Shown here piece by piece: positions 11,070 through 59,758 of a stretch of 64,000 bases of DNA; position 1 is the stretch's first letter, and every line of letters starts with the position of its first letter. The notes under the pieces are model-generated. The model had not been told where the DNA came from and did no database searches. It saw nothing but the letters and a program-made list of their open reading frames with translations. The stretch comes from Octopus vulgaris (lineage: Eukaryota): assembly GCA_951406725.2 (NCBI GenBank), contig OX597825.1, forward strand, positions 32,612,001-32,676,000. Reading direction: 5' to 3'. Made by a program: the position numbers and the translations under genes.

Positions 11070-12056
11070 GCATCAAATTTTGGCACAAGGCCAGCAAGTT
11101 TGAAGGAGGAGGCAAGTCGATTAAATCGACCTCAGTATTCAACTGGTGCTTATTTCATCGACCCCGAAAAGAATCATGGTCGCCCCCGGTGGAATTTCAA
11201 CTCAGAATGTAAAGACGGACAAAATGTCGCTAGACGTTTGCCCGGCGTGCTAACGACTCTAGCATCTCACCGTCCTAGTGCTGGACATATACCATAACTT
11301 CTTAAGACTACCTTTATCTTCCTCAGGTTTTAGTTACTATTTAACAAACATACATTGTGTTTGCTACCAACCAGAAGAGGGCCTCAAAACGAGGCTGATT
11401 AAAACAACTAACAAAAGAACGTCAATAATTCTTCCTATAATAGGCATAAAGCCTGAAATTTGTGGTGAGAGCGATAGTCGATTACATCGACCCCAGTATT
11501 GGACTAGTACTTAATCCATCGACTGATACTTAATTCAACGAAAGGATGAAAGTTAAAATCAAACTTAGTGGAATTTAAATTCAGAACGTAAAGATAGACA
11601 AAATGCCGCTAAGGTTTTCGTCCGGCGTGCTAACGATTCTTATTTTTTATTGCCCACAAGGGGCTAAACATAGAGACGAAAAACAAGGACAGGCAAACGG
11701 ATTAAGTCGATTACCTCGACCCCAGTGCGTAACTGGTACTTAATTTATCGACCTCGAAAGGATGAAAGGCAAAGTCGACATCGGTGGAACTTGAACTCAG
11801 AACATAACGGCAGATGAAATACCTATTTCTTTACTACCCACAAGGGGCTAAACACAGAGAGGACAAACCAGGATAGACAAACGGATTAAGTCGACTACAT
11901 CAACCCCAGTGCGTGACTGGTACTTATTTAATCGACCCAGAAAGGATGAAAGGCAAAGTTTACCTCGGCGGAATTTGAACTCAGAACCTAACGGCAGACG
12001 AAATACCGCTAAGCATTTTGTCCGGCGTGCTAACGATTCTGCCAACTCACCCCCTT
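11070..12056 (-). mobile_element. Family-A SINE cluster; 11641-12056 is a head plus two tailed units nested in an older copy
   Basis: tRNA-like A box (tggcagaatcgttag) and B box (gagttcaaattc); tail ccccttgtggg...aaata joined to ggtattt and to agaatcgttagc. Confidence 0.9.
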
Positions 12057-12766
12057 ACTTAGTTCTAAAATAACAGGTTATAGTTCAGTGCCCCAGACTA
12101 AAATAAGTAACAGTGAGGCTCAAACATGGCTGCCGTGGTCCAATAACTAAATGCAATATGAGAATAAATTAACACACTATCGAAGCAGCCAAATGCTATT
12201 TTCATCTATCCCTGATCAGTCATTAGTTTACACCAAATGATTCCATAACGATCATGCCTCTCTGCGTATGTCTCCATTCAATCACATCTAATCATTATCC
12301 ATTTTGCATGATTGATTGGTTTCTATTGTTTTTATTCTTGTTATTATTGTATTTGTTGTTACTGTTATTATTATTTGTAGTTGTTCAAATTCTGCTGAGG
12401 TCGGCTTTGCCTTTCATTCCTTCTGGGTCAATACAGCATATACCAGCTGAGTACTGGGCGTGGTGGGGTCGATATAATCGACTAGAGCTCCTCCCCCAAC
12501 ATTTCATGCTTATGCTTTTTTCTAAAGCAGAAAACATTAGTGCGTCAAACAAAAGGTTTAGCGGCATTTCTACCAGTTTCTTTATGCCCCGAGTTAAACT
12601 GCCGAGGTCGATTCTGCCTTTCGTCCTTTCTCTAGCATTTGATCTCAAGAATCGATCAAAGCAGCATTTTAGCACTACAGCCGAAGTAATCGGCGTAGCT
12701 CCTTCCCTCAAATTCCTGTTCTTGTGCCAAAATTTGAAACTGTTTCGTTTAGTTATTTTCTGATCA

Positions 12767-13960
12767 AAGGCGGCGAGCTGGCAGAAACGTTAGCACGCCG
12801 GGCGAAATGCTTAGTGGGTATTTCGTCTGCCGCTACGTTCTGAGTTCAAATTCCGCCGAGGTCGACTTTGCCTGTCATCCTTTCGGGGTCGATTAAATAA
12901 TTACCAGTTATGCACTGGTGTCGATATAATCGACTTAATCCATATGTCTGTCCTTGTTTGCCCTCTCTCTGTTTGGTCCCTTGTGGGTAGTAAATGAATA
13001 GGTATTTCGTCTGCCGCTACGTTCTGAGTTCAAATTCTGCCGAGGTCGACTTTGCCTTTCATCCTTTCGGGGTCGATTAAATAAGTACCAGTTACGCACT
13101 GGGGTCCATATAATCAACTTAATCCATATGTCTGTCCTTGTTTGTCCTCTCTGTGTTTAGCCCCTTGTGGGTAGTAAAGAAATAGGTATTTCGTCTGTCG
13201 CTACGTTCTGAGTTCAAATTCCGCCGAGGTCGACTTGCCTTTCATCCTTTCGGGGTCGATTAAATAAGTACCAGTTACGCACTGGGGTAGATATAATCGA
13301 CTTAATCCGTTTGTCTGTCCTCGTTTGTCCCCTCTGTGTGTAGCCCCTTGTGGGTAGTAAAGAAATAAGAATCGATTGCGCGCTGGATAAAATACTTCGG
13401 CATGTCTTTCGACACAATACATTCCAAGTTCAAATTCCGCCGAGGTCGACTTTGCCTTTCATCCTTTCGGGATCGATTAAATAAGTACCAGTTACGCACT
13501 GGGGTCGATATAATCAACTTAATCCATATGTCTGTCCTTGTTTGTCCTCTCTGTGTTTAGCCCCTTGTGGGTAGTAAAGAAATAGGTATTTCGTCTGTCG
13601 CTACGTTCTGAGTTCAAATTCCGCCGAGGTCGACTTGCCTTTCATCCTTTCGGGGTCGATTAAATAAGTACCAGTTACGCACTGGGGTAGATATAATCGA
13701 CTTAATCCGTTTGTCTGTCCTCGTTTGTCCCCTCTGTGTGTAGCCCCTTGTGGGTAGTAAAGAAATAAGAATCGATTGCGCGCTGGATAAAATACTTAGC
13801 GGCATGTCTTTCGACACAATACATTCCAAGTTCAAATTCTGTCGAGGTGGACTTTGCCTTTCATCCTTTCAGGGTGAACAAAATAAGTACCGGTTAAGTA
13901 CTGGGGTCCATGTAATCGACTTCCACCTCCCTACAAATGTTCGGGTTTGTTGCTTGTAGT
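12767..13960 (+). mobile_element. Family-A SINE tandem array (184-bp units plus a 400-bp higher-order duplication) nested in an older copy
   Basis: ggtatttcgtctg recurs at 12817, 13001, 13185 and 13585; blocks starting at 13081 and 13481 are near-identical. Confidence 0.92.
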
Positions 13961-15660
13961 TGAGAGAATTACTATTTGCTGTTTGATGATGTGGAATAAC
14001 AGAATCTTTTCTGCGCCGAACAAAATATTTCGCGCTATTTCTACGGATTCATTACATTGTAGCTTTCAAATCTTATTGAGTTTAGTTTTGCCTTTTATCT
14101 CTTCGGAGGCGATAAAATAAAATAGCGTCCAAATACTGCATCAATTTAATCGATTAATCCCGTCTCCCTTTGGTAATCTTATGCTTAAATCACAAACAAT
14201 TATTTCATTTGTTGCTATTTTGTGTTTGTTATAATTTGTTGTTTGTTGTTTGTTATTTGTTATGTGTTTGTTGTAAATCCATTTTCACCCAGATCAATAA
14301 AACCTATTAATTAAATCACTGAAGCGTTGACTGCCATGCCTTCCCTCTCTTTTCATGTATACTGTACCCCGAATAAATTATCCAATGTATCTAACTTCCA
14401 ATATTGGTAGGGTATGGTTCAAGGAAGATATGACTGCTATTTCTAGCAGCTTGACCAAATCACAGAGATATCTGTTCTTTGTTTCCTTGTAGCTACCTAT
14501 TTTTCCTTTTCATTTCACGTAGCAGTTAGTTTATGAGAAAAGCCATAGCAATAACCACGCCTCCCTTATATAGGTCGTTATTTCTCGTAGCATCACTGCA
14601 GAAAAGTTAACGTTTTCTTTTTCAAAATATTAATTCTGTAATTGTTGCTTTCCTTATTTTTCCTTCTAACACATTTATTTAGCAATTCTCGGTAAATTTA
14701 TAGGATTTCTCTCTATTTAACTTCAGCCAATCAGTAACGTATTGTTACACAGCGCCATGTTAGATAAATACTTTGTCCCCCAAACAGTCAAGTGGAAAGG
14801 AAATTATTTGTTGTTAGCGGATTCAATTGATGGCGATTCTTACTCGATATATACATACATATATAAATAAAAAGAAACTACACATATAAGAAAACACATG
14901 GATATATATATGTGTGCGTGCTTGTGTGTATGTGTGTGTGCATACAGAAGTACACACACACACGCACACAAGATATATCTCCTTTTCCGAAGATATTAAC
15001 CCATCGCAAAATATCTTTAAACAATCGATATTTACCATAGAGTAGTGTGTTCCATTACAGAAAGAGAGGAGAGGAAGCCCCAGGTAAGCCAAGACACCGA
15101 CATGGTTTCACTCTATTGCTATCGCAGAAACACTACAACAGAGAATGGCAAAACTACCTCTAAAATACAAAACTAATTACATTGAAACCATTGCTTATTC
15201 TTCACAGAGTCGAAGACATTGTATTACTAAAGAGCAAATACTTTCATGGGCCCAGACTGAGACGTAGCATCAGTCTTCTGTTCAATCTCATCTTCCGCCA
15301 TATTCATCGTTAATACTCGTTTGAAAATGAATGAATGTCACGTATTCTCATTTCTCTCGTCGTATATCACGGACTGGAAACTTACTCAGTTCGCTCTATT
15401 AATTTTATTCTTTTATTTGTTTCAGGCATTAGACTACGGTCATGCTGGAGTATCGCCTTGAATGGGTTTCATTGATCATACAGACTCCCAATCTTTAAAA
15501 TTTTTTATAAGGTCTGCTTTTTATTTCCGTGATTTCTAAGACACTATTTTTTTACGCGGTGTCACACTTAAAGATATACAGACACAGGTAAGCCACCAGC
15601 CCGGCAAATTTACCATATGTGCGCGTGTGAGTGTGCGTGTGTGAGTGTGTGCGCTCGCAT

Positions 15661-15662
15661 AG

Positions 15663-15695
<33 letters not shown>

Positions 15696-15896
15696 TGTAT
15701 GTATGTATGTATGTGTCTATCTATCTATCTATCTATCTATCGATATATCTGTCTGTCTGTCTGTCAGTCTGTCTTTCTATCTACCTGTCTATCTATCTAT
15801 CATTTAACTATTTATCAATATATCTATTTATCTACCTGTCTCTCTTTCTATCTGTCTATCTATCTATCTATCTATCTATCTCTATCTATCTATCTA

Positions 15897-15941
<45 letters not shown>

Positions 15942-15962
15942 CTGTCTATCTATCTATCTATC
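15661..15962. repeat. (TATG)n/(TCTA)n/(CT)n/(TA)n microsatellites
   Basis: Visible runs. Confidence 0.95.
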
Positions 15963-15967
15963 TTGCT

Positions 15968-16834
15968 ACAGGGTACAAGAAAATGATTTGACATATTTGT
16001 GGGTTTAATAAAAGCGAAATAGAGTAAGGAACGAGAAATGTGATTTTATTTTCGAAATCTACATATAATGCCATTTTGTTTCATTTGGTTTTAGAAATTA
16101 AATCAGTCATATGGGTGCTGTTACTGTACACACACTGCCGAAAGCGTTCACGAAAGCTGTCCATAACTCAACGAGTCATTTCATGTAGAATGGCAGCAAT
16201 TTCTTGACGAATGGCATCTTTTAATTGTTCAATAGATGGAGGGTAATGGGTGTATACATCTGATTTCATGTATCCCCACATAAAACATCGCACGGGTTGA
16301 AACCAGGTGATAGGGCGGGCTAACCGACGTCACCGCGCATTGAGATAAAATGACTGGGGAACATCTCCCTCAAAATCCACTTCGCACGTCGAGAAGTGTG
16401 GGTTCTTGCTCCATCCTCTTAAAATCAAATATTGTACTTATCGTCAAGTTCATTCAATTTGGGTTTCAGAAAACTCTCTAGCATCACATAGTATCGATCA
16501 GAGTTCACAGTCACTATAACATTGTCTTCTTCCAAGAAGTACGGACCCTAAATGCTGAATTCTGCTGCCGTGTAGGTACGGGATCATGTCTACCTAGCTT
16601 TCAGTGCACACGGAACGGTCTTCGGTTTGCAGTTACGAATTCGTTGTTCTTGATAAACGTTTCCACAATGAAAACGTGATGCTAGCTCATCCAATACATG
16701 TTGGTTGGCAAGTGAAAGTGAAATGAAACAAAATGTCACAAATTGCACCTGTTGAAACAAAATGGCATTATATGTACATTTCGAAAATATAAAATACAAT
16801 ATTAGTTCTTTACTTCATTTTACTTTCATTAAAC
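15968..16834 (-). mobile_element. Internally deleted Tc1/mariner-superfamily element
   Basis: Inverted repeats about 16002-16083 vs 16753-16834; minus strand encodes WGYMKSDVYTHYPPSIEQLKDAIRQEIAAI, a typical transposase C-terminus. Confidence 0.8.
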
Positions 16835-17545
<711 letters not shown>

Positions 17546-19147
17546 TGAAGGTGTCCAGTGTTTACGTGTAATAACTATAGCTATCTTTGCGTTCATGTTC
17601 CACATTTAATAATGTTCTTCCACCCGTATCCATTCATCTTCAGTTTCCTGGAAGGGTCGGTGGGTTAGAGTCCTCAGACACCTGCTCCAAAGGATGCAGT
17701 TGGAAGCTAGCCACTAGGTCTCCTGCCATTTGGCTTTGATTGAAGATTCTGACTTGCAGTTCTTTCCTGCAACATTCTAATTGCATGCTTACAGTACTGG
17801 AGTTGTGACCATCTAATGCTGAGAAGTAACAGCTCAACCTGGAGAGACTCCCTGATTTCCAAGCTACAAAATCCTGTCCAGTGACATTATTCCAGAGATC
17901 CTTCAGAGGAATCCCATTTCTGCCGCTTGTATTCGTGATCATACACTTTCGGTCATTCTAACATTCATGACTGTAGCTTAGAATAAGCACATAAACTGTA
18001 TTGAAGGGATGGTCTTCTTCACCAACTTCTCTTCTGAGGATCAAATACTGGAGCTGGTACTTTAGTGATCTAATTGCTCTTGAACAATAACTGAGCCCCA
18101 AAGCGATCATCATATACTGGCAATTCCAATCATTCAGACACGTCGTTTTATATACTAGTTCATTGTTTTATCACCAAGGATTCTCAAAAATCCACTGTAT
18201 ATGGTAATTCTTTTACCAGCAATTTCACAGCAAGAATGGTTCAATGACAATCTTTAAGTATGGATATAGGAGAAAAATTGTTTTGTGTTTTTTCCTTAAG
18301 CTCTGAGGCAGTTTGAGATCCTGTGCATTAGAACGTGTTTAAAGAGAAGTTTTGCATATCGTAAACTCTCAGTATCAGAGTTTAGTGGAGTTCCATAAAG
18401 AATCTCTATTTGGTATTAGACTCGATACCATCTCTATCCAATAAGCAACAACCTTACAATTGACGGGATACCAATAGCTGGTGGTGGTGGTGGTGGTGGT
18501 TGTGGTGGTGGTGGTGGTGGTGGTTTTGGTGATGATGGTGGTGGTGGTGATGGTGGTAATGGTGGTGGTGGTGGTGGTGGTGGTGATGGTGATGGTGATG
18601 GTGGTGGTGGTACTGTAGCGGGGGAGTTGAACACAGAGCACAACAGGAGGAAAAGAAACCGGAAGTCATATCCTCCAGCGTTCTAATGATTCTACCAACC
18701 CAATACCAGAACTGGTATTTGTCATCCCCCCTCACCCGTCCAATAGGATGAAAGTCAGAGCTGGCTTTGCTGTGAGTTGAACTCAGAATTTAGAGAGGTT
18801 GAACGAATAAGACAAAGGATTCCATCTGAAGATCAAGCGATTCAGCAAATTCGCCGTTTTAGAATTTAAGTAAGATATCTAAATCTTTCCCCTGGATCGA
18901 ATGCCAGTCTTTTAAAAGGAAGCGTTCTCACATGATCTAGTCAACAACACCCGACAGATAAATGGACTAATGTCCATTCAATGTAAGTGAAGTATACAAA
19001 CGATATGTATACAGTAGGATTGAACAGAGAAACGACACACACACACCGACACACACACATACACACACACATATATATATACATATATATCTGTTACTCT
19101 TTTTCTCTATATCTTTCTCTTTCTGTCTCTCAGTCTATTTGTGTGTG

Positions 19148-19204
<57 letters not shown>

Positions 19205-19205
19205 T

Positions 19206-19236
<31 letters not shown>

Positions 19237-19247
19237 GAAACAGACAC

Positions 19248-19298
<51 letters not shown>

Positions 19299-19439
19299 TA
19301 TGTTCATTTCCCTATCTCCTTTTATTCCTTTAGAACCTTGGAAAAAATGTATTTTACTCGAAATATCAAGGCTAATTAACTATTACTTAGTTACAATTTC
19401 AATGTTTTGTTGTTGATATTATTAATGTACAAACGTCCG

Positions 19440-20083
19440 TCTGTATTGCTACACACATCTATAAGATAGTCTTAAAGGCTGTGTTGGCAAAGTGGCAGTA
19501 TGTTTCTGAATTTGTAGAAAAATATCACCCTGAAAAAGTAGCTACAAGTCGTGCAGCTGCTTTATTTAATGACTCTGCTCTGGCACATTTTCATAACATT
19601 TTGAAAGGAAGGAAAAAGCAGACTTCTCTTGATAAGTTTCTAATGAAACGACTTGTAAGTGTGAAAAGTGAAGGAAGTGTGTCCAAAAAGCCTAAATTAA
19701 GCGAAGTGAGAGAGAAAACGCCAGAAATTGTTCTTCCTGGAGTCTTAATGGAAAGAGATTCTCTTTCCAAACAGTAATCCTCCTCCCTGCTCTATCATCT
19801 TCCTCGCGCACAAATCGTCCCATCTTTAAGTCAATTCAGTTAATAAAACCAGTTTACATATTTCTTTTGCATTCTCTTTTTTTGTAATTGCCATTTTACT
19901 TCTAACTACGCCGTTTCTGTTTTAAAGCCCATAAAAAATTTATTTTGGAGTGGTTTTGGTGGGCTGGAACGGATTAATTATATTTTAGTTAATTAACCCG
20001 TTCCAAGAAAATTGATTTGTAAAGCGAAGAACTGGTAAAACGAGCTCGGTCATGGGAGGAATTAAACTTGTACTGCGAAGTAT

Positions 20084-20088
<5 letters not shown>
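19440..20088 (+). mobile_element. 3' fragment of a pogo/Tigger-like DNA transposon
   Basis: ORF 19481-19777 FVEKYHPEK...LAHFHNILKGRKKQTSLDKF resembles Tigger-type C-termini; ends in a TIR-like ...cgaagtatttctg|TA. Confidence 0.65.
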
Positions 20089-20133
<45 letters not shown>

Positions 20134-20134
20134 G

Positions 20135-20168
<34 letters not shown>

Positions 20169-20299
20169 CACATACATACATACATACATACATACATACA
20201 TACATACATACATACAAAGAGCCAATTTTGTGCTGTTATTTATATGTCGTTGATGCCAAACCCGTGACTCCAAACCACCAAATGCTTGGGCTGCTTTTG

Positions 20300-21740
20300 T
20301 ATTCGCAGATGTATTTCTGTATCCAGATTTCTATCATTTTGTACAGAGCTCCCAAGAGAGATGAAAAATTTAACAACCTCGAATAACTTACCTTTAACGA
20401 AAATTTTTGTGAGGTTGTAAACAGCAAAGGTTGATACATTACAGCTATTTTTTGGGGTATTTTTTTTTCAAGTTGATGGTCGAGCCAAAATCATCACAAG
20501 CTGAGTCAAATGCAGATACAAGAGAGTACAGGCCTGTTTCAGACTGACTGACTAGATCGCAGTTGTCAGCGTATAAGAGTTCCCTAATGAGTGAAGTAAA
20601 AATCTTCGTTTTGAATTTCAGTCTGGTCAGATTGAAAACATTCCCGGTTGTTTGATATTTTATGTAAATACCTTCCTTGCAGTTTTGAAAAGCGTGTGAC
20701 AGCACAGCAGCAAATTATATTGCATAGAAGGTGGGTTTTCTTGCTTTACCCCATTTTCCACGACAAAAGATTCAGAAAGCCTAGCGCTAAAATTGACTCT
20801 AGCTTTCATATCTTGATTCAAACCCCCGATCATGTTTACAAATTTTTCTGGGTAATCTATTTTCTTTACAATTAGCCACAGAGCATTTCGATTAACAATA
20901 TCAAATACTTTGCTTAAATCAGCAAAGCACTGGTATAAGGCAAGATTCTGTTCAATGCACTTTTCCTGCAATTGTCTGATAGTAAAGAGAGTCAGCTGTG
21001 CCTCTGGAGGAGCGAAAACCACATTGAGAGTCAGACACTATATTTGAAATTATGGAGGTATTTAAACGTACTTGCGGGCAAGTACCTTTCCAACTGCAGA
21101 CAAAAGCGAAATCCCACGAAAATTTGGCCCCGATTTATACAAGCAAACTAAAATGGCATCAATCCAGTTTTGAGGCAGTTTCTCGGTTCTCTGACAGTGA
21201 CAAATTAATATATTTAAGATTTTAAACATTTTGTCACCCCATATCTCAAGGCCCCTGCACAGATTCCATCAGACTCTGGAGACTTTTTGTTATTCAGTTT
21301 ATTCACTGCTAAATAAATATCATTTAGAGTTGGTTCAAATGCCATCTCCTCTATAACTCTAAGTTCTTCGATATTTTTCTATCATGCTCATATCAACAGA
21401 TGATGGGTTATTCTGGTTTATTCAAAAGTGTAGAAAAATGTTCTACCCAGCGCTTATGAACAAAAGCGGTGTCAATCAAAAGCAAATATCTATTTGCTGT
21501 TCTCAGTGGAGCTATTGATGATTTAGGGCCATATACCTCCTTAAGATAAGAATACAAACCCGTGGCATCATTTCTATCATCTGCTTCTTGCGCCCCTTTT
21601 TTCCTGTCATTCTACCATTCTTATTTAATTTTCCTTAGAGCAGTGTGCACTTTCCCTTTCGGCTTTCTGTAAATTTAGTTTGAGTTGGACCTCAAGGACT
21701 GAGAAAGAAGTGTATTGCCTAAGTTTTTATTTTCTCAAAG
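20300..21740 (-). mobile_element. Decayed RTE-clade LINE, reverse transcriptase region
   Basis: FTIRQLQEKCIEQN..FADLSKVFDIVNR, ENGVKQ and IRELLYAD motifs across frameshifted ORFs. Confidence 0.88.
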
Positions 21741-21945
21741 TAGATCATGAAAACAAAAAAATATGTATGTACACACACACACAAATATGTGTGTGTGTGT
21801 GTGTGTGCTCCAGCATGGCAACAATCCTTGGACTGAAAGTATAAAAAATATATTAGCAAAGCCTACGATATCTATATACAATGTAACATGCCTACTTGCG
21901 ATCTGCGTTCTCTTTCTCTTTCCTTTAAATATATATATATAATCG

Positions 21946-21995
<50 letters not shown>

Positions 21996-22601
21996 ATCGT
22001 ATATGTATATATATATAATCGTATATGTATATATATATAATCGTATATATATATATATATAACCGTGCGCATCTGTGTGTACTTAGGCAGTTTGTATATG
22101 AGTGCTATCGTGCATGTGTGTTTCTTATAAAGCACATTAATCATCATTTTTATTTGCAACAGAGCAGCAGGCTTTCTTTCTTTGCTCTACAGTAAACAGG
22201 ATTGAAATTATTTTCTCAAACCAGTAGATTAGAGAGTCTTATCGCTAAAATCCCCCTCCATCTAGCATTTAAGGAAACAAATCTAAATTACTCAAGGAAG
22301 CCAAAATGTCAGAAATAATATGATTAATTATAGTTTTATCCAGGAAAAAATATACCTATAAATATAAGACATTGCTCGGTTTCTCACGACCTATATTTTT
22401 GATGTTTGTTACTAGCGAATACTAAAGGGGAAAAAATGACGACTGAAACCAATTTAGTTTAATAAAACTACAGGCTCTACTTTACAGTTATTAAGATAAT
22501 GATAATAACGATGATGATGATGATGTTGATGATGATGATGAGGAGGAGGAGGAGGAGGAGGATAACAACAATAATGATAATGATAATGATGATAATAATA
22601 T

Positions 22602-22638
<37 letters not shown>

Positions 22639-22717
22639 AATAAAATAAGAATAATAGCAATAATAATAATTATTATTATTATTATTATTATTGTTGTTGT
22701 TGTTGATGTTGTTGTTG

Positions 22718-22748
<31 letters not shown>

Positions 22749-22795
22749 CATCATCATCATTATTATTATTATTATTGTTGTTGTTGTTGTTGTTA

Positions 22796-22844
<49 letters not shown>

Positions 22845-22860
22845 CATTATTATTATTATC

Positions 22861-30189: not shown

Positions 30190-30590
30190 AAGTGTTGAAG
30201 TGTGTTGTTTTACAAGAGCTTTGTCCTACGAACAAAACCTTCATGAATTCGGATGTGAACTATGACCAGCTGGACGAATTAAATGCAGCGATGCACCACA
30301 AGCGTCCAACACTTGTTAATGTAAAGGGCATTGTTTTCCATTACGACAATGCCAGACTCTACACTTCTTTGCGTAAGCAGCAGAAGTTGCTGGGGGCTTG
30401 AGTTTTGCCGCACCCGACCCTGTTTCTCAGATTTCCACTTGATCCGGTCTCTTCAAAATTCATTCAATGGACACACTTTCACCTCTGAAGATGTTAAAAT
30501 TCACTTGGAAGATTTTTGTTGCCATTAAAAACAGGAAATTCTTTGAACATGGGATAATGAATCAGCGCACAAAATGACAGAGGATATCGT
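30190..30590 (+). mobile_element. Mariner transposase fragment
   Basis: YDQLDELN..KRPTLVN.KGIVFHYDNAR and SDFHLIRSLQN motifs. Confidence 0.85.
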
Positions 30591-31139: not shown

Positions 31140-32050
31140 TGGGTTGACCAATAGGTGCTTTCGATTTTTTTAAACGAGAATGAGACAAATTTTAAACACA
31201 TTCAATCAACGATATCATTATGGTTTCGTACCAATATCTTCTGTCAATTTGTGTGCAGATCCATTATTCCATATCCAAAGAATTTCCTGTTTTTATTGGC
31301 AACAAAAATCCTCAAGATGAATTTTTACATATTCAGAAGTGAAAGTCTGTCCATTGAGTGTATTTTAAAGACACCGGAACAAGTGGAAATCTGAGAGGCA
31401 AGGTCAGATGCGGCAAAACATCCCATTCAAGCCCCCAGCAACTTCTACGACTTACGCAAAGAAGTGTGGAGTCTGGCATTGTCGTGATGAAAAGCAATGC
31501 CTTTTACATTAGGAAATCCTGGACTCTTGTGGTGCATCGCTGCATTTAATTCGTCCAGCTGGTCATAGTTCACATCCGAATTCATGAAGGTTTTGTTCGT
31601 AGGACAAAGCTCTTGAAAAACAACACCCTTTCAATCGCACCAAATTGAAAACATAAACTTCTTCGGGTGAACTCCTGTTTTAGAGGTTGTTTGTGGTGGT
31701 TCGCCCTTCTTTCCCTATGGTCGTTTATGCTTCCTATTGTTATAGGCAATCTATTTTTCGTCGTCTGTGACCATTCCCTTAAAAAAAAAATGAATCGTTT
31801 TCTTCACATTTCTGCAACTAATCTCAGGGGAAAAATCTTTGGACAAGGTTAGTCTCATTCACTTAATGTAAAACTCAAACATGGAGCCTACTGACACAGC
31901 TAAGTTGATGCAGATGAATTTTAACACGTGATTTGGATATTTGAAGAATATTTACGATCTTTTCGACTAACTCCTTCTTTACCGATCAGAATCTTCAAAG
32001 CCACTTGAGTCCCTTCTCTAACTTACTATATTGCCTTTTTCATAGCCCCA
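31139..32050 (-). mobile_element. Decayed mariner element with one TIR
   Basis: TA-ttgggttgaccaatagg TIR-like end; inverted homology to 30190-30590. Confidence 0.8.
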
Positions 32051-38419: not shown

Positions 38420-38730
38420 ATAGATAAAGTCGACCACGGCGGAATTTGGGCTCAGAACGTAATGACCGACGAAATACCGTTATGCATTTTGCCCGGCGTG
38501 CTAAACATAGAGGGGAGAAACAAGGACAGAAAAACGGATTAAGTCGATTACATCGACCCCAGTGCGTAACTGGTACTTAATTTATCGACCCCGAAAGTCG
38601 ACCTCGGAGGAATTTGAACTCAGAATGTAACGGCAGACGAAATACTGCTAAGCATTTCGCCCGGCGCGCTAACGTTTCTGCCAGCTCGCCGCCTTCGGCG
38701 TGCTAACGATTCTGCCAGCTTGCTGCCTTA
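38420..38730 (-). mobile_element. Young family-A SINE (38505-38695) nested in an older family-A head
   Basis: 11-bp duplication cggcgtgctaa at 38494-38504 and 38696-38706. Confidence 0.9.
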
Positions 38731-47799: not shown

Positions 47800-47855
<56 letters not shown>

Positions 47856-47939
47856 ATGTTGTAGAAGGATGACAGCCATAACAATTTTTAAATGATATTT
47901 GCATAAAATTTTCCACCATAACAGTTAAAGCAATATCTG

Positions 47940-50300
47940 AATTCCCATGCGGTATCAGCCATCAGCCATCTTCGGACTCAATTCTGTAAAGGGAACCCTT
48001 GCGTATATTAATTCTCTGCTCTATTTAAGTTTTGATTACTTCATTTCTGTGCATCTTCATTACGTCATCGCCAATATTCCTAATAAGCTAATTTACTACA
48101 TTCACAAATCAAAGATGTTGTTACGCTTCCATTCCTCTTGTCATAGAATCTATGAAATGATGAATCAATACACTGTGGAATTGGATCTATATCGTGCCCA
48201 GAGCCTGTTACTATATTATAAAGACAATTCTTCAATTTCAAGATTTAGGTTTGACTTTCTCATCCATGTTCACGAGCAAACAGTATTAATACCTTCAGCC
48301 ATATCTTATGTTTCCATAAATTTTGTATTTCGATACGTAGAATTTTTCGGTTTTAACTGTTATAATCTCGTTAGCTGTTTACCTCCTTTACCAACGATCG
48401 CCCGCGGTTTCTTATGTGCACTATCCTTCGCAGTTTCTTTCTACACTATCCTTCGCAAATAATCTATAATTTAAGCACTGTCGCATAGACATGATCAAAT
48501 GCATTACAGTTACGATCATCTCATCTTCATTTCTAGACATAGTTTTGTTTAGGATACATTATCCGATACCTTTCAGCTTTTTAAGAAACAGGATACGATT
48601 TGAGGGAGTCTTGGTCGTTCTTTCTGGTACATATAGACTCCCAGATTGTCATGTTTGCTCTTTTACCACTCTTTGCAACAAGGCGTTATTAATCTTATTA
48701 ATACTACTGATGAAATGTTATGTCCCATGTGAGCTTTCTAAAGTTAATCGGTTCTACACATTTCACTTTCGAATCCTTCATTAAACTTCAAAAGAGATAT
48801 TATCTTGTTTTTTGTTGTTGTTTTTTTCCATAACCTATATATTACATTCTCCATTAAACGATTTAAACATTAATTCCGCTATTTTAGATATTCTCATTAT
48901 TCCAAAATATGCATTTCACGCTAGTCTCCATTATCTTATCTAACCTACGTATTTATAATCCCCTATGTGCAGCAGTTTTATGAATTCGTTATCTGCTAAG
49001 TGTATGCCATTATTTTCCATTCCATTGAACCAACGCATTGTTTGAAATAAAGAGCTCGTAAGAATTGTGTTCTTTGCAAACAGATTCAAGGCGACCCTCC
49101 AGCATACTCTTAGCCTTCATGGTTAAAACAGAGCAAAGACCTGAAGAACATCGTGACCTAAAAATAAGGAACAGCAGATATTTATGCCGCTCTTCCTTGA
49201 AATACACGTAACTAAGTATTCGCGATGCTTGTGTTAACGTTATCATTTATACCATGAAAGGCCAAGAGGACACGCGATCATCTCGGGAAATTCTTCCAAT
49301 TATCTTTCTAAATAATCTTTTTTTCTTCTGACTCCAAACTCTTTAATTCCAGCTTTCTCATATATTCTGTTACTGCAATTCTTTATTCAACTATTCAGCA
49401 TTCAATTATGAGATTATTATCAAGGGGATAGTTTTGCATTATAATTCACCCCTGCGATTGTAATATATGCATTTAAAGTTATTCTCAAGTTCCGTTATTC
49501 CTTATGCAGCATCACTTCAATATTTCTATTCTAATGGCAGTATGTACTTTATGTATTTCTGGTTATTCTGAAGTTCCTTTATTTCTTCCATAGTATCACT
49601 TCTCTTCTGACGGAAATACATCCTTTATGTATTTTTATTCTCAAATTCCTTTATTCTTTCTACACTTCTGTTCTAAAGGCAACACACTCCTTTGTGAATT
49701 TGTAGTTATTCTCAAATACCTTTATTCCTTCTACAGAATCACTTTTCTTCTAATAGCAATATGCCCTTTATATGTGTGTAATTATTCTCATGTGCGACGC
49801 CATAGTAAAAGACAGAAAACACTTGCCCAAGGTGCAGCGCAGTGGGATTGAACCCAAGGCAACATGTTTTGGAACCAAGCTTCTAACGCACCCAACCATG
49901 CCGCTGCCAATTGGTCTTCCACTATCACAAGGTCTGGATACATCTACTCACGCTTTATCGAAGTTTCTGCAGCCATTTACCGTATTTCTTACTCTCGCTT
50001 TCTTCTATAATCTTCTGTAATGTGTTCAGTTTTTTTGACATTAGAGATAAACTTCCTTTCATTCAATCCCTAACATTCCTTTGTAGAATTTCTTTTTCAT
50101 CTCCGTGAATGATGCAGTTTTGTTTGCATAAGTCTATTTTCTGCTGGCATCGTTTTATCTTTCTTATTAGGGCGATGTGTTTTTAACAGCATTTTTTTGA
50201 AAACCCTTTAGATTTTACGTACAACGTATTTCTTACCTTTTTTACGTATTTTTCAATTCACCTTTCTATACCTTCGAAGTATTTTATTATTCAACATTGC
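47940..50300 (-). mobile_element. Highly decayed R4/Dong-like LINE
   Basis: Residual minus-strand WMRKSNLNLE and LICECSKLAY*EYWR resemble the zinc-knuckle region of the other copies; family-B SINE piece at about 49800-49905. Confidence 0.5.
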
Positions 50301-50350
50301 CTTTTGACGTTTTCTTCAAATCAAATCAAATTATTATGTTTATCATAATA

Positions 50351-50411
<61 letters not shown>

Positions 50412-52170
50412 TCATTGTTCATAGTTTGAAAAATATATCAGGAGTTTCCTTCAAACAAGAATTAGATACATCTTAGGAAGCATGCATAAAATATTCAAGA
50501 TTAATACAATGATGCTCAAGATGAATAATTCTGTCAGAATAATGCCCTTGCAATATTTGAAGATCCAGTTTGTAGTAGGATGGATGGTGGTAGTGTAGGT
50601 GGCGGTAGTAGTGCAGTGGGGATAGTGAGGGGTAGTGGGGTATAGCAGTGGGGTAGTGGGGTGGTAGTGGATTGGTGGTAGTGGTGGTGGTGGTGGTGGT
50701 GGTGGTGGTGGTGGTGGTGGTGGTGATGGTAGTGGAAGTAGTGTTAGTGGTGGTGAGGTAGCGGTTGTCGACATGGTGATGGTGAAGATTTCGACTGTCG
50801 AAACCCTGGAGTTTGCCCACTCGACCAGACGTGCATGATGAACCCTCATCGTATATGAGGCAGAAGTAACAGCAGCGCTACATGATGGCCAAACCGAAAT
50901 GAAAAATTACATCAGGTTATGCGAAGGTGACTCAGAAAAATGCCATGCTCACCACTTATCTTCTTTCTGGCACATGGACAGTAGTAAAGCCACTAAGTTG
51001 GCTAACCACACACACAAACGCGCGCGCCTGTGTGTGTGCGTGTGTGCAATATGGCGTTGCAGAATGCGGGCTGTTTCACATATATCTGTCTCCATAATTT
51101 ACATCGTTGTTTCCTAGGTGAAATTTAAAATAAAGAGTAATTAACAGACATAGAATATATCACCTGACCTATTATTCAAAATATAACATTTTTGATATAA
51201 AATCTCAGGAAATCTATTTATTCTTCAGATTACATTCACATGCAATTTGGTCCAAATATGGAAACTAAAACGTAACAAATTTGATTGACAGATGGAAAGT
51301 GCAGGGCTTCAAATAGATTTATTTTTAAACGGAAATTAGTCCATTGAAGATGGAATATAGAGTACTAATATTTTTGATAAATCAAAGCGTGATGAGAAAG
51401 TCAGAGTTTAGTTAAAGGAAACAACTTTTTGTAGACTAGATTTGACGTCGATTAGGAAGGGAAATTAGCAACTAGTTGAATAAACCAATTTGTAAATGTA
51501 CAATTATCAGATAATAACTTGTTTTTATATTTACACTGTCTTTAAAAACGGAAATGAAAATAATAAATCTTTTGATTGTTAACAATCATAATAATAAAAT
51601 AACAATATGAAAATTTTAAAAAAAACATAGCACAAAGTTAGAAAATTAACGACTATTGAATATAATACAAGTTAGTATGTTTACACTACATATGAAAATA
51701 GAGGAAGAAAAAATATCATTTAATTCCATAAAAGTTTAATTTTTTCTAGTTCCTTGTGTTATGAATTAAACGTAGAAGAAAGCGACTATTTGAAGAGATT
51801 CATTTACAACTTATAGATTATATTTCGGCTTTACAATATGAATTACTATAGAAACGGTGTCTACGAAGATAATAAGAAACTGACTAGTAACTTAGTATTT
51901 CAACAGTTTTTATCCCAAACTACTAAATGCAGATACAATAGACAGTGCACTCATTAGGAAGTGGCATTGTAAATTTTTACCTTAGCTACTTTCATAAGTA
52001 ATTGGTTCTTTTTACATAATAATAAGGCAGATGTAACCCTTTTTTCTTCTTGTTCAGACAAAACGGGAAAATGCCGTTATGAATGAACGAATTACAGAAT
52101 TAAATTGACTAAATGTGTTTGTTTTTATAGAAGAATCACTTAAAGAGTCTAAAATGGTATTGTTAATATA

Positions 52171-52843
52171 CAAGGTGTATTCTAGAAGTTTTGAAACTCT
52201 TTTCAGGAGAGGCATTTATTTATTTCAAAGAAGCACAAAAGTAATTTCCTTCAATGTAGGATCCTCTGACTTCAAAGTACCTGTTTTAGTGCTCCAGCCA
52301 CTTCGTGAAGGCCTCATGGAGGTCCTTGAAAATAAAGGTGTTCTGGACCTTTTCACAGCTTCCTTCATCTCCAATGTATTCAAAACGACTGCTCCTGAGG
52401 TTCTTCCTCAACTTGGGGATTGTAAAAGGGTAAGAGATAGTTTTGCTGTCTCTGTCAAGTAGATGGTTACCAGTACGGAATTGTGAACTGCTACTCGGCT
52501 CATACAACTTAACCCCCTGACCAATCTGGAGCATTTCATAAGATTTTGTAGTATTTTTCTCCAGTTTAACACAAAAGTTTATTGCATATCGAGCTTCGAC
52601 ATTGCCTTTACGTCCCGGCTGCATTCTGCAAACTCGTCACTCGTCAGCTGTGACAAGCAATATTTAGTGGGGTGCGTTCAAAATGCTGTTACAGTCATCT
52701 CCTTCAAATAGGAATAACAAAAGTTGGCAGGAGGTCAGCTTATTACATGTATAGCAATGATATGCAAAAATTGCAATAATCTAGGATAGATTATTGCTAG
52801 CTAGTACTTCTAAAAAGTCTCAAAACTTCTGGAATGCATCTCA
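52171..52843 (-). mobile_element. Internally deleted mariner with both TIRs and TA TSD
   Basis: TA|caaggtgtattctagaagttttgaaact ... agtctcaaaacttctggaatgcatctca|TA; ORF joins the N-terminal EARYAINFCVKLEKN..SYEML to the C-terminal AFTKWLEH. Confidence 0.88.
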
Positions 52844-53997
52844 TATGCTTAAACAGTTCCTTAGTTATTTCAGCAGTAAACAATAGAAGTCTTTAATTAT
52901 TCTAATTTAAATTGTTTCTTAATAAATATGCATTTTAATAGTAAATAATAAATATATATTTTAATTTTATCTCGTCAACTTTTAAAATGTGTTTACTAAT
53001 GTCTACAAAACCAAAATTAATATAATGCTCATTCGATTCAGTGGAAATATAAAAAAAAGTGCATATTACTATTAAATAATATTCTATAAATATGTACTGA
53101 ATAAAATATTATTAGGTTAGTTGAACGACAAATCTTTTGCAGACTCTGTTTATTCTAACTCGAATCAATATCTAATATGTAAACAGTTGAAGACATCTAT
53201 AGTCGAACCGTATATTAAGTTACAGTAAATAGAATATTAATTAGTTTCTTCAGCTATAAAACTCCAAAACTGAAGTTTTATAGCTGAGCAAACCATTTAA
53301 TGCTCTATTTGGGTGGTTTTATTACAGGATTTTGCATGCACTTTTCAAAGATTATGCTTGTATCTTCTATAACGTCTACTGACATTTTCCCAGCCAATTG
53401 TATTTAACGTCTGTTTTTGTTAAGCATTGACAGACAAAATGAAAAGTTCTTCGCGCCTAAAAAGCTTATGTGATGTTCTAAAACATTTCAACGAACATCC
53501 GATAATTGCATGCTGTATCTCTCTTGTAAAAATAAAATCTTTCTGATGTTATCTAGTTATTTGGTAACTTTCTACGATGTGTGTATGTGTTAAGAGATTG
53601 CTGTTATGTTATGATTAACATAGTAAATAATCAAGTCATGACAAGCTAATAAGAAATAATTATCTTCAACATTGTTAATTAATAACATTAAACATTTTCC
53701 TATTTGTAATGTCCAATTTGTTGTATTTTCGTTTCACTTGTTAAATTAAGAAATACTGAAATTGCTGAATGATAAAAGTGGAGAGACCTCTTATTAACAT
53801 TGGCCATATTCAGCTACAATTAGAACAATCTCTATAATTAGCTGAATTCTGGGTGTCTTATAAACTTGCTAAACTGTTCAAGAATATTCCATAAGAGTCC
53901 TAGACGCGAAAATTAAACTTTTCTTTATGTCTGTCAATACTTATCAAAAAGTGCGTCAAAGACGATTGGCTGGAAAATTTCCTGTCCAGTCGCTGTT

Positions 53998-54725
53998 GGG
54001 ATCTTTACCTTTTGACTTACAGATATAAAAAATATTTTTTTGTAACTAAACGCTTTCAAACTTCGGACACTGGTAGAATGTGTCATATAAAACATGTTTT
54101 ACTCTTAGTATTTTTGAGAAAAGCTTATATTTACAAAGTTATTTCACGTTAAAGTAGTCCTATTTCAATAATTTCAACCAATCAATGACATGTATTCAGC
54201 TGAATAAAATTACTGCTGTTGTTTGCCAGTAAGAACTTCTGGCGGTGCATATTTCGTTTGTCACTGTTATTTATGACAACCCTAACCTTAACCCTAAAAC
54301 ATTAACCCTAATCTAAAACCTAACCCTAACCCTTAAACCCTAACCCTAAGCCCAATCTAAAACATAACCCTAACACCCTAACCCTAACCCTAAAACCCTA
54401 ACTCTAAAACCTTAAAGCTAAAACCAGTACGAACGATCGAACGATGTCATAAATAACAGTGACAAATGAAAAATACACCGCCGATAGTTGTGTTGACAAA
54501 CAACGGCAGTAATTTTATTCAGCTGAATAAACGTCATTGATTGGTTGAAATTACCGAAATAAGACTACTTTAATGTGAAATAACTTCGTAAATATAAGTT
54601 TTTCTCAAAAATGCTGAGAGTAAAACATGTTTTATATGACACACTCTACCAGTGTCCGAAGTTTGAAAGTGTTTAGTTACAAAAAATTATTTTTTTAAAT
54701 CTGTAGGTCAAAAGGTAAAGATCCC
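53998..54725. mobile_element. MITE with about 281-bp TIRs and a degenerate (CCCTAA)n core
   Basis: TIRs 53998-54278 and 54445-54725 (gggatctttacc...ggtaaagatccc); flanks gctgtt and gatgtt form a probable 6-bp TSD with one mismatch. Confidence 0.92.
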
Positions 54726-54937
54726 GATGTTGTATTAGGGTTCAAGGACAGGACAAACAAAATAAAACAACTCCGAATATATTGGTAAAATTATCCAGTA
54801 ACTTCGAGAAAGTGGGTAAGTTGATTACATCAATCTTGGTGCTCAAATGGTACTTATTTCATTCACCCCGAAAGGATGGAAGGCAAAGTCGACTTCTGCG
54901 AATTTGAACTCATAACGAGCTAACAATTCTGCTAGCA

Positions 54938-55173
54938 TACCTATTTCTTTATTACCCACAAGGGGCTAAGCACAGAGGGGACAAACAAGGACAGACATAG
55001 GTATTAAGTCGATTACATCGACCCCAGTGCGTAACTGGTACTTAATTTATCGACCCCGAAAGGATGAAAGGCAAAGTCGACCTCGGCGGAATTTGAACTC
55101 ACAACGTAACGCAGACGAAATATCGCTAAGCATTTCACCCGGCGTGCTAACGTTTCTGCCAGCTCGCCGCCTC
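54938..55173 (-). mobile_element. Full-length young family-A SINE nested in an older family-A head
   Basis: 14-bp TSD caattctgctagca at 54924-54937 and 55174-55187; 3' end ...aaagaaataggta. Confidence 0.93.
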
Positions 55174-55209
55174 CAATTCTGCTAGCACGCCGCCCTAACT
55201 TTACCAAAT

Positions 55210-56050
55210 GTATTAATATCAGTTGTTAGTGGCAACTTTCTCTTGTCAATATTACCAAAAATAGTAATAGTATTCGCTGGCTCTTTTGACTTTCAAACTT
55301 AAACATTCCATGTTCAAATTCGAGGAAGCCTGTCTGCTACAAGATTTACGTGAAAGGTATTATTCTCTGTTTGTAAATCTTTGCAGAACACTACATGTAT
55401 GTTGGTAAACTTTCCGTTTTGTATATTTGTAAGGAACAGACTCTATTTGAGCGTTAAGAGTGTTATTTATTTAATCGAATTTGATTTCTAGTTGTATAGC
55501 ATATCGCTGATTTTCTTCTTTATATTTCATTCGTCTTTGTTCATAATAACAGATAAATTGCTATTATCACATTTATAAATTACAATTTTCTCGTTATTTT
55601 TCAAGTCTTGCAGAGCAAGTATAATATCCACATTAAGTATGATTTTATTTTGTTTACAAGTTCTTTGTCTGTTGCTTTCACCCTTGAATAAGTTCCACAG
55701 TTTGTCATTAATTTCTAAAATGAGATTTTTTTTAAAAATGCTAACAGTCACCAGAGACTGATAAAGTAATTCAAGTTAAAGGTTCTTTATATTTTCTTTC
55801 GAGGTATAAGTTAGAACAAAAGTGAAGCGTGTAAATTGGTCAGGCTGAGCATGTTCTGTGAGACGTTAAAGATGTTGTCTTCATGAGTAGGCAGCAACGT
55901 TTTTCTCTTATAAATACCAGCAGCTAGGCTTCTGTTTGTCGTTGGTCATTATTTATTCGACATGAATGGGCAGTTTGCGCGTTACAGATATTTCAGATAA
56001 TTTTTTCATGTTCTAATTAAGTCGAAGATTTTCCATGAACAATATATTTT
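55210..56050 (-). mobile_element. Penelope-like element fragment (region upstream of and at the start of RT), decayed
   Basis: ALQDLKNNEKIVIYKCDNSNLSVIMNKDE resembles the PLE L..L......I..ADKG..V.M motif. Confidence 0.65.
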
Positions 56051-56179
56051 AGACTCTGTGTCCCTATAGCTATTTGATATTCGATACTAGAATTCTCATA
56101 TATATATATATGTATATTATATTATATTATATTATATTATATTATATTATATTATAGTATATTATATTTATAAATGGTA

Positions 56180-56464
<285 letters not shown>

Positions 56465-57070
56465 TGTAAGATCCGGGTATCCAAGTGTAGGGAGGTTGTA
56501 AATTTCAATCAGTCCCTGATGGGTATAAAAGTTAATCCTCACACAGAAGAATTACAATAATCTTAATTGGTGAAAAAAGAAATTATATTAATGTCATGTA
56601 CCTCTTGGTGAACGACAACTATTGATTTCATATCGTACACATATTACATACCTGTGATTTTGTGCAATAAACGTCGAGTTCATCCCCTTCTTCAGACATT
56701 TTAATTCGTTTCATAGTTAAGTCTTGTTTAATTTGATTGTGAATCGAATTATGTCTGAACACGTGTTTAAAACTGCATAACGTTTTTATGTAACATGAAA
56801 TAAATGTTGCTCGTTTACCGAAATGTATACAAAATTAATTTCCTAGATATGTGTGTGCGGATAGTCGCAGACATGGCTGTATGGTAAGAAGTTCGCTTCC
56901 CAACCACATGAATCCTGGTTTAGTACCAAAGTATATGGATCGGGCCACCCAAAGCTCACACTTGGAGATAAGTCGATTATATCGACCTCTGTGTTCAGTT
57001 TTTACTTATTTTATGAACGGTAAAGACAGCCTCAACGGTATCAGAGCTCAGACCGTAAAAACAGACGAAA

Positions 57071-57306
57071 TACCTATTTCTTTACTACCCACAAGGTGCT
57101 AAATACAAAGAGGACAGACAAGGACAGACAAACGGATTAAGTCGATTATATCGACCACAGTGTGTAACTGGTACTTATTTAATCGACCCCGAAAGGATGA
57201 AAGGCAAAGTCGACCTCGGCGGAATTTGAACTCAGAACGTAACGGCAGACGAAATACGGCTACGCATTACGCCCGGCGTGCTAACGTTTCTGCCAGCTCA
57301 CGCCTT
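57071..57306 (-). mobile_element. Young family-A SINE whose tail is fused to the body of an older copy (about 56965-57070)
   Basis: Minus ...aaagaaataGGTAtttcgtctgtttttacggtctgagc. Confidence 0.9.
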
Positions 57307-57692
57307 CCATTCACCTTTATATGAATAAAAATGTAAACGTTGACTCAGCAATTTTGCAATTCGTAGCCATTTTGCTTTTATATTCGCTTATCTGGAAAAA
57401 AAGAAGAAATTAAGACTTTTCGAGTGTCCTTCACTCATTTTCAAAAATGATTTTAATCTCCTTTTTTTTTGTTTTATACTGTTATGTGATGGTTTTATGA
57501 AGACTGTCATAATGTGAGGATTTTCATGCGATTGATATGAAGTTTAATTTTTTCATTGACCTTTAAAACATGGCTGATGTCTTTAGATGTCATACTTTAT
57601 TCTGTAGTGATGTCAATAATGACGTCTATATTGTTAAGAACATCAAGGAAAATATTCTCCTGAATTTGAGTGTTTTGGTGTGTGTATGTGTC

Positions 57693-57746
<54 letters not shown>

Positions 57747-57755
57747 CGTGTACAG

Positions 57756-57787
<32 letters not shown>

Positions 57788-58711
57788 AGTATCTATGTGT
57801 GTGTGTCTGTGCCTTATGACTGAAATACGATGAATATTGAAGAGATTATAAACGAACGGGAGGAAGAAAGGAGCTAAGACAGAAAAATCGAAAAACAGGA
57901 AATAAATTAACGATATAGAGATAGAAATAAAGAGAGACACGGAGAGGAAGATAAAGAGAATGAATAATGGGGTGGAAGTAAGCGAGAAAGAAAAAAACGT
58001 TAGTAAACCAATTACTCGAGAATTCAAACATCGTTGCTCATTCAGTCCTTTGTTTAATTTCAAGATAATTTGACACACGCAGAGCAAAATGTTTTAGTCA
58101 CATTTGCTCTGTTAGTCGGTGATTGATACAGGCGAGACAGTGGAAAATTTACACCGTTTTACACCGCCTTAATTAGAAAGTTGTTTTTACAAACCAGCAG
58201 CAACAGCTACTTTCACATCTTGCTAGCCAAACTAACTCAATCCAACAAACCCAGACTCAACTCGGTCAAAATAATCAATTTTCCACGCAGCCACTTAATG
58301 TATTTAATAAATCACGATTAGAGATGTCAACGTTACAATATATTCTTACAGTTTAACATACTGTTGCCTGCTGTTTCGCTAGTTCCACCATATTATTGCT
58401 TTTACCATTACACATGTCTATATGCATTCCGATTTATGTGTCTGTATGTGCTTATGTTTGTATGTGTCCGTGCGTGTACGTCTGCTTCTGTGTGTGTGTG
58501 GAGGTGTGTGCACATACACACCTTTTTTTGCTTTTGTATTGTATTTTCTGTAATATTGTTGAATGTTTATTTTAGCCTGGGTCGTGTAGTGCATTGCGTA
58601 ACATGGTAAACATAGTCTGCTAATTAATTTCGTAAATGCAACTATAAACACGGTCATAGTTATACATCCATCCATCCATACATATGTGTGCGTGTGTACA
58701 TATACATATAC

Positions 58712-58744
<33 letters not shown>

Positions 58745-58823
58745 TATAGACATATGTATATCGATTGATGGATGCACATGCACACAGACCTACAAACCCA
58801 CACGTACACGAACAGACAAATAA

Positions 58824-58883
<60 letters not shown>

Positions 58884-58946
58884 CTTTATTGCCAACAAAG
58901 GGGCTCGCTGCCTTTTATATGTTCCTATTAATATTAATATTTATTA

Positions 58947-59160
58947 AGGCAGTGAGCTGGTAGAATAGATACCGCGCCGGACGAAATGCTTAGCGGTATT
59001 TCGTCCGTCTTTGCGTACTGTGTTCGAATTCTGTATGGATAAACTTTGCTTTTTATCCTTTCGGGGTCGATAAAATATATACCGGTTCAGTACTGGGGTC
59101 GATGCAATCGACTTAATACCTTTTTCGAAAATGCTGGCTTTCTGCCAAAATTTGAAATCA
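58947..59160 (+). mobile_element. Old family-A SINE without the young tail
   Basis: aaggcagtgagctggtagaat...gttcgaattc...cctttcggggtcgataaa; further old copies at about 12385, 14000, 18700, 33640, 35170, 41940, 44290 and 63030. Confidence 0.85.
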
Positions 59161-59189
59161 GTATAAATATGACTATAATGAATTCATGT

Positions 59190-59758
59190 GAAGCTGCGTG
59201 GCTCAGGGGTTAAGGTGCTCAGCTCACGATCTTAAGGTCGTGAGTTCAATTCCAGGCGACACGTCGTGTCCTTGAGCAAGACACTTTATTTCTCTTAGGT
59301 CCAATCTACTAAGCTGGCAAAAATGAGTAGTACTTGTAATTCAAAGGGCCAGCCTTGACACATTCTGTGTCACGCTGAATCTCCCAAAGAACTACGGCAA
59401 GGGTACATGTGTCTGTGGTAGGCAGCGAGCTGGCAGAAACGTTATCACACCGGGCGAAATGCTTAGCGGTATTTCGTCTGCCGCTACGTTCTGAGTTCAA
59501 ATTCCACCGAGGTCGACTTTGCCTTTCATCCTTTCGGGGTCGATTAAATAAGTACCAATTACGCACTGGGGTCGATATAATCGACTTAATCCGTTTGTCT
59601 GTCCTTGTTTGCCCTCTCTGCGTTTAGCCCCTTGTGGGTAGTAAAGAAATAGGTACATGTGTCTGTGGGGTGCTGAGCCACAGGCACATTTTCACGAGCA
59701 GGGTGTTCCGTTGATCGAATCAACTGGAACCCTCGTCGTCGTAACCGACGGAGTGCCA
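59190..59758 (+). mobile_element. Family-C-like SINE interrupted by a young family-A SINE (59419-59655)
   Basis: Host head gcgtggctcaggggttaagg...gagttcaattcc, gtgtccttgagcaagacactt; duplication ggtacatgtgtctgtgg at 59402-59418 and 59652-59668. Confidence 0.9.

Follow-up and report, generated by a model that had tools for sequence, protein, structure and literature searches.

Retroposition aimed at fixed sites has been described in several systems, which we compare here with a tailed short interspersed element (SINE) of Octopus vulgaris. This SINE was followed up from a 64,000-nucleotide stretch of contig OX597825.1 (positions 32,612,001 to 32,676,000; the window in what follows), and it inserts into the head of its own family far above chance. 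SINEU and the long interspersed element (LINE) Tx1-Mar of crocodilians likewise prefer fixed positions in another repeat, a preference attributed to machinery of the Tx1 group (PMC4494074). In crocodilians, the SINE and the LINEs both insert into a Mariner element, whereas the octopus SINE inserts into its own head, a target not used by the tail-sharing LINEs that were examined. In R2Ol, R1Bm and SART1, the RNA carries target sequence downstream of the element, which pairs with the primer and makes insertion more efficient and more precise, as proposed here (PMC6530143, PMC7265360); for R2Ol, read-through target sequence lifts insertion from 12% to 96-98% (PMC6530143). These LINEs are autonomous, have site-specific endonucleases and insert into host genes, whereas the octopus SINE is a passenger that seems to bring its own guide, with several guides in parallel. 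In RTE-related SINEs, the 3' terminal RNA sequence correlates with the first bases of the target-site duplication (TSD), as it does here, but the match involves one or two bases from a simple-repeat tail (PMC6007223); in the octopus it involves four to seven bases or more, which lie outside the element and match its head. Tandem SINEs of the blood clam (PMC11481361) and SINE satellites of squamates (PMC10702118) begin, like the arrays described below, with one full head, behind which head-less units follow within a single TSD. They are discussed as products of unequal recombination and make up about 3% of copies in the clam, whereas about a third of tails are involved here; unlike the clam and squamate cases, the octopus arrays are short, consist mostly of independent units and often stand in hosts of another tail type. 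No report of a SINE targeting its own head was found in the literature searched, coverage of which was incomplete and lacked supplements, the original octopus SINE paper and Repbase. Relative to known RNA-target pairing, what is new here is that the target is the SINE's own head and that the guide would lie outside the element.

The tailed unit measures 232 bp, with the copy at 59420-59651 of the window taken as reference. It comprises a head with box-like motifs, a body common to older relatives and a 60-bp tail that ends in AAAGAAATA; the older relatives have the same head and body with at least three other tail types. Like tRNA-type SINEs, it is short, non-coding, present in high copy number and flanked by variable TSDs of 13-22 bp. 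The box-like motifs lie near positions 12-22 and 74-84, as judged by eye against the A and B box consensus; ARAGORN reported no tRNA gene for the head, and Rfam gave no tRNA match. On folding, the tail hairpin does not stand out (z scores of -1.0, -0.6 and +1.1), so that the case for this structure is one of conservation only. The sequences that follow the tail fall into a few motifs, namely GGTAT, TATAT, AGAAA and their variants. The head also contains a 12-bp inverted repeat (59452-59480 in the window), the loop of which adjoins position 49, and a DNA hairpin at this place could aid nicking.

A 24-base pattern of the tail has 101,678 exact matches genome-wide. From these tails, 33,083 (32.5%) run into the position-49 motif of the head and 2,611 into the position-16 motif, and the motif-flanked loci that were checked proved to be heads in 30 of 30 cases at position 49 and in 27 of 30 at position 16. 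The chance level is 5.4e-5 (34 intact position-49 heads in 628,000 strand-bases of arbitrary stretches and the window), which places the enrichment of insertions at position 49 at approximately 6,000-fold. Hence, the SINE inserts at head position 49, and less often at position 16, of its own family far above chance, and the self-targeting proposed by an earlier sequence-only reading of the window is borne out genome-wide.

The breadth of this targeting was assessed in a sample that was not chosen by flank, which combined the window with the first 30 tail matches, 35 stretches centred on listed matches and 25 arbitrary stretches of 10 kb. Among its 142 tail ends, 79 have no family head behind them, 33 run into a host of another tail type and 30 run into another tailed unit; an earlier pass had given 64 self-insertions in 143. 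The 79 flanks outside heads comprise 54 with no repeat seen, 17 in another repeat, four in a microsatellite and four elsewhere in the own family, to be compared with 296, 67, 24 and 13, respectively, for 400 flanks of random DNA. As other repeats are no more frequent in the non-head flanks than in random DNA, the SINE targets its own head, rather than SINEs in general, and does not do so exclusively. The sequence-only reading had suggested both a general SINE-targeting system and a restriction of tailed copies to the inside of SINEs, neither of which survives these counts. A retroposon has been regarded as target-specific when more than 20% of its flanks lie in one type of sequence (PMC4494074); the corresponding values here are 32.5% of exact tails and 63 of the 142 sampled ends, 33 of them in other-tailed hosts. 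A minor self-target was also observed, a GGTAC site on the opposite strand of the SINE body (loci L111, L159, L176, L180 and L236; four of 30 loci with a GGTA flank, plus L236).

The tailed loci of the window and their hosts are as follows.

11824..12056, minus strand: first tailed SINE unit of a dimer, with one seamless head
11641..11823, minus strand: second tailed unit of the dimer, beginning at head position 49
11426..11640, minus strand: older family member serving as host, with another type of tail, resuming at head position 16
12767..13767, plus strand: tailed array of five units, with junctions at positions 49 and 16
13768..13970, plus strand: older host remainder, beginning at head position 16
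38505..38695, minus strand: full-head copy inside a host head, its tail stopping early where it matches the host
38494-38504 and 38696-38706: 11-bp TSD of the 38505 copy
54942..55173, minus strand: full-length copy in an old host head
54924-54937 and 55174-55187: 14-bp TSD of the 54942 copy
57075..57306, minus strand: full-length young copy, its head with donor-type bases
56969-57074: strongly diverged host remainder from position 49, behind the 57075 copy
58879..58913, minus strand: seventh tail, 35 bp, in which the first 11 head bases are joined to a tail stub that runs into (TA)n
59420..59651, plus strand: full-length 232-bp reference copy inside another SINE-like repeat
59402-59418 and 59652-59668: 17-bp TSD of the 59420 copy, starting with GGTA

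Six of these tailed loci (11641-12056, 12767-13767, 38505-38695, 54942-55173, 57075-57306 and 59420-59651) had been recognised before and are real, as are the three TSDs of 11, 14 and 17 bp at the 38505, 54942 and 59420 copies. The remnant at 58879-58913 contradicts the statement that no tailed copy lies in unique DNA or a microsatellite, since it adjoins (TA)n. The trailing GGTA, previously counted as element sequence, is not a fixed part of the SINE, as the TSD begins directly after AAAGAAATA. The host of the 59420 copy is a different multi-copy repeat, with 80 BLAST hits in the sample. At the 54942 copy, five bases (54937-54941) precede the TSD on the 3' side, two of which deviate from the 5' copy in the direction of the head motif. 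Within the 12767 array, approximately 13030-13400 recurs 400 bp further on as a near-identical duplication at the DNA level of about 400 bp, in which 48-50 of 50 bases are identical in each bin from 13050 to 13400.

Whether a self-junction reflects a new insertion or an inherited one can be read in part from the ages of its two sides. Hosts of another tail type are more diverged than the tailed unit that precedes them (0.089 versus 0.043, n=20, p=0.005; 0.090 versus 0.055, n=15, p=0.024), and some of the mismatch in hosts may stem from pairing at their own junctions. Perfect outer TSDs were seen in four of 18 composites of a tailed unit in an old host, in four of 19 lone hosts and in 43 of 74 lone tailed copies (composites versus tailed copies, p=0.008); these TSDs were located in 18 of 32 composites, 19 of 50 lone hosts and 74 of 116 lone tailed loci, and shuffled controls gave 0-1. 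Young units in older hosts with old outer TSDs thus indicate that many self-junctions are new insertions. Neighbouring units mostly have no private mutations in common, and some arrays (L083, L103, L107 and L124) carry common private mutations across whole units. Head-less SINE arrays need not arise from unequal recombination alone. For dimers of two tailed units, co-retroposition or duplication contributes, as the equal ages of their units indicate.

The 5' end of self-insertions is equally distinctive. The first unit at a self-junction has a full head in 72 of 93 cases, and just three of these 72 stand behind a host-head TSD; two further first units follow a host head but are truncated. Among TSD-bearing copies elsewhere, 58 of 64 have their full length. 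Composite heads at position 49 of other-tailed hosts show a divergence of 0.097 (n=22), which lies between that of lone hosts (0.156, n=30) and that of lone tailed copies (0.060, n=125) and differs from both (p ~0.001). This intermediate value indicates that the heads are mosaics, and most self-insertions have one seamless mosaic head. Fully young composite heads, the result of a first head-age test, were given up when this larger test showed mosaics. At the level of sequence, then, partial renewal of the promoter region is real, and this much of the earlier suggestion that host promoters are refreshed appears to stand. Likewise, homology at the 5' join, which had been suggested by copies fused to the host head, is supported, and the idea that the 57075 head is simply that of its host does not, as it has donor-type bases at positions 44 and 49.

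At the 3' junction, the TSD begins with the base that directly follows the tail: of 45 TSD pairs in the GGTA class, which were anchored only on bases from +8, 38-44 match at each of positions +1 to +7 and 9-18 at -1 to -4. Outside heads, insertions per 1,000 free sites rise from 0.47 to 2.47, 4.48 and 6.15 for sites with four, five, six and seven motif-matching bases, and reach about 98 in heads, with free-site numbers estimated from 0.3-0.7 Mb; the graded preference is also present in non-SINE DNA. Mismatches in the first five TSD bases occur in 13 of 35 pairs, which were not chosen by flank, and 10 of them go toward the flank motif, one goes away from it and two are equal (p=0.012). Donor-type bases also appear in hosts beyond the junction. 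In one host type, base 62, which lies 14 nt into hosts entered at position 49, is of donor type in 10 of 21 copies after a position-49 junction, compared with two of 20 lone copies and one of 18 after a position-16 junction (p=0.0008), and the same holds for base 64 in seven of 21 versus three of 38 (p=0.026). A pooled comparison of hosts was dropped as it was confounded by host type; when each type was compared separately, most differences in divergence were not significant, and the effect remained for the diagnostic bases alone.

The flank motif also tracks the tail variant. By hand counts of listed matches, the C variant of the tail accounts for nine of 200 non-head GGTA flanks, 28 of 100 tails overall and 89 of 100 tails at position 16. 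Furthermore, copy L053 carries 29 nt of head past its tail, inside a 21-bp TSD. Together, the 3'-junction results fit an RNA that would extend into the head and pair with, or overwrite, its target. Older tails (L062, L087, L050, L131 and others) keep the loop CTTGT with a different stem, and their TSDs mostly start with AATAT; given these features, 3' pairing may be general in the SINE family.

A LINE that shares the tail had also been anticipated, and a LINE group with a matching 3' end was found. A zf-RVT search yielded many families with two open reading frames (ORFs), encoding endonuclease, reverse transcriptase (RT) and zf-RVT domains, and with tail-like ends. One family accounts for 17 of 30 LINE loci, its 3' end matching SINE positions 190-231, and the ends of other families match positions 175-204; no single LINE with the whole SINE tail was present among the loci seen. 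LINE L332 has a 459-aa frame with zf-CCHC and a 1,132-aa frame with PF03372, PF00078 and PF13966, which is the gene layout of the Tx1 clade: two ORFs, a zinc knuckle in ORF1, and an apurinic/apyrimidinic-type (APE) endonuclease, RT and zf-RVT in ORF2. We refer to the tail-sharing LINEs as Tx1-like; a homologue search with the LINE protein returned no named Tx1 reference, the best named homologue being from Argonauta, at 60%. A pattern search for a LINE with the whole tail gave 18 matches, which read, from their listing, as mutated SINE tails or tails adjacent to microsatellites. Stem-loop ends numbered 65 in 160 LINE loci, and the two that seemed to be LINE ends at a SINE-family head turned out to be SINE copies. 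The CR1-like and RTE-like families (presumed clade labels) that led an RT search were rejected as the source of the tail, which was absent in 30 of their loci.

How might a SINE come to target itself? Probably, we suggest, its RNA extends past the tail into flanking sequence and base-pairs with the target at the nick. Having no run of four T residues of its own, the SINE would be transcribed by RNA polymerase III (Pol III) on into whatever lies behind the source copy. Reverse transcription by the LINE enzyme would begin at one set base behind the tail, and the RNA bases that come next would be paired with the primer. If the source copy lies at position 49, the family head would serve as its guide, allowing pairing of 4-7 nt in ordinary DNA and of at least 15 nt in a head, and this longer pairing would make the loop self-reinforcing. 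The end of the complementary DNA would then anneal to the host's upstream head and leave one partly renewed head, with multimer retroposition and DNA duplication adding to arrays.

RNA guidance of this kind is the best-supported cause of the self-targeting. Its main rival is the endonuclease specificity of an unfound helper, and the two can act together. A helper LINE might nick position 49, and others position 16 or TA repeats, the SINE inheriting these targets and the tail variants marking helpers or periods. The family-specific targets of related LINEs speak for this (one family precedes another repeat's head in 14 of 14 loci, another stands before (CT)n), as do the inverted-repeat loop beside position 49 and the inheritance of targets by SINEU from Tx1-Mar (PMC4494074). 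Nevertheless, none of the 160 LINE loci examined, of about 25,000 candidates, had inserted at position 49 or 16, and none of 30 odd-tailed position-49 junctions checked, of 175 pattern matches, had a LINE protein upstream; moreover, an endonuclease alone writes no donor bases 14 nt into the host and corrects no junction mismatches. We regard the helper endonuclease as a rather unlikely explanation.

There are two further alternatives. Junctions might have formed rarely and then been multiplied by read-through retroposition of several units, together with tandem duplication or unequal exchange of DNA, in which case little new targeting would be required. The window duplication of ~400 bp, the private mutations common to whole units in the four arrays named above, the equal ages within tailed dimers, the scarcity of full-headed first units behind a host-head TSD (3/72) and the tail stubs that precede position 49 in unique DNA (L399, L425 and L428) are all what such multiplication would leave. 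It is nonetheless very unlikely to be the main process, given that 33 of 63 self-junctions enter hosts with other tails, that those hosts are about twice as diverged as the preceding unit and have old outer TSDs, that neighbouring units mostly lack common private mutations, and that the graded preference holds outside SINEs. The other alternative concerns the 5' join only: full-length copies with ordinary TSDs would insert at position 49, and the doubled head would later collapse by recombination between adjacent heads. Full-length copies behind a host-head TSD do exist (38505 and 54942 in the window; L050, L066 and L147), and the intermediate divergence of composite heads would follow from collapse as well; yet about 69 of 72 doubled heads would have to be gone in copies that are 4-6% diverged, whereas adjacent 184-bp tandem units persist, which makes collapse unlikely.

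Several observations weigh against RNA-guided new insertion itself. Related LINE families have fixed targets of their own, so that enzyme targeting is real in this group. The target already carries the motif in most TSDs (38-44 of 45 per position), and an endonuclease preference would give the same result. The direction test for TSD mismatches drops to 7 versus 1 (p=0.07) when three doubtful alignments are left out, and the sample is drawn disproportionately from the first megabases of a single contig. In dimers of two tailed units, both units are equally old and their ages are correlated (0.041 versus 0.045, p=0.42, rho 0.57, n=34). Finally, no empty allele was found for the 57075 and L108 loci in contigs of related organisms, which contain the same junctions: at 57075, the 5' junction is already present in contigs of organisms B, C and D, with no cover from E, and at L108 no listed contig bridges the site.

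A wider reading of RNA guidance, which we put forward tentatively, is that of a heritable target memory. The downstream flank of a source copy would guide its daughters, and target choice would pass from copy to copy although neither the element nor the enzyme encodes it; lineages that had landed in the head of their own family might have become a homing system that reinforces itself and replaces old Pol III heads with new ones. If the RNA behind the tail does set the landing site, a passenger could gain or change its target specificity without any change of protein, which would be a route to sequence-specific retroposons. The genome would then hold a natural record of 100,000 events in which RNA paired with the primer and the 5' end was joined by homology, two processes about which questions persist in target-primed reverse transcription, and would offer a testable principle of programmable insertion.

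Several observations were made on the LINEs in passing. A young LINE family (L385-L398, L430 and L431), with frames of up to 1,150 aa, has its end at a constant base within the head of another tRNA-like repeat, and the window contains a relative of this repeat near 56870-56930. Another family of the same group always stands before (CT)n, like Kibi (L347, L432, L434, L437, L438, L440-L448, L484, L493 and L504). LINEs may also be stacked head to tail with a spacing of ~5.4 kb, as in L338 (G000:C2:73043000-73052999), and several more such pairs occur among the listed loci. A very young CR1-like family (L278-L300) provides 24 of the top 30 RT loci, with many 949-aa frames and ends in (ATT)n. Self-comparison of the window also revealed two-copy segments of 280-425 bp, the presumed partners being 53998-54278 and 54445-54725, 15659-16083 and 16753-17156, and 30198-30587 and 31234-31630.

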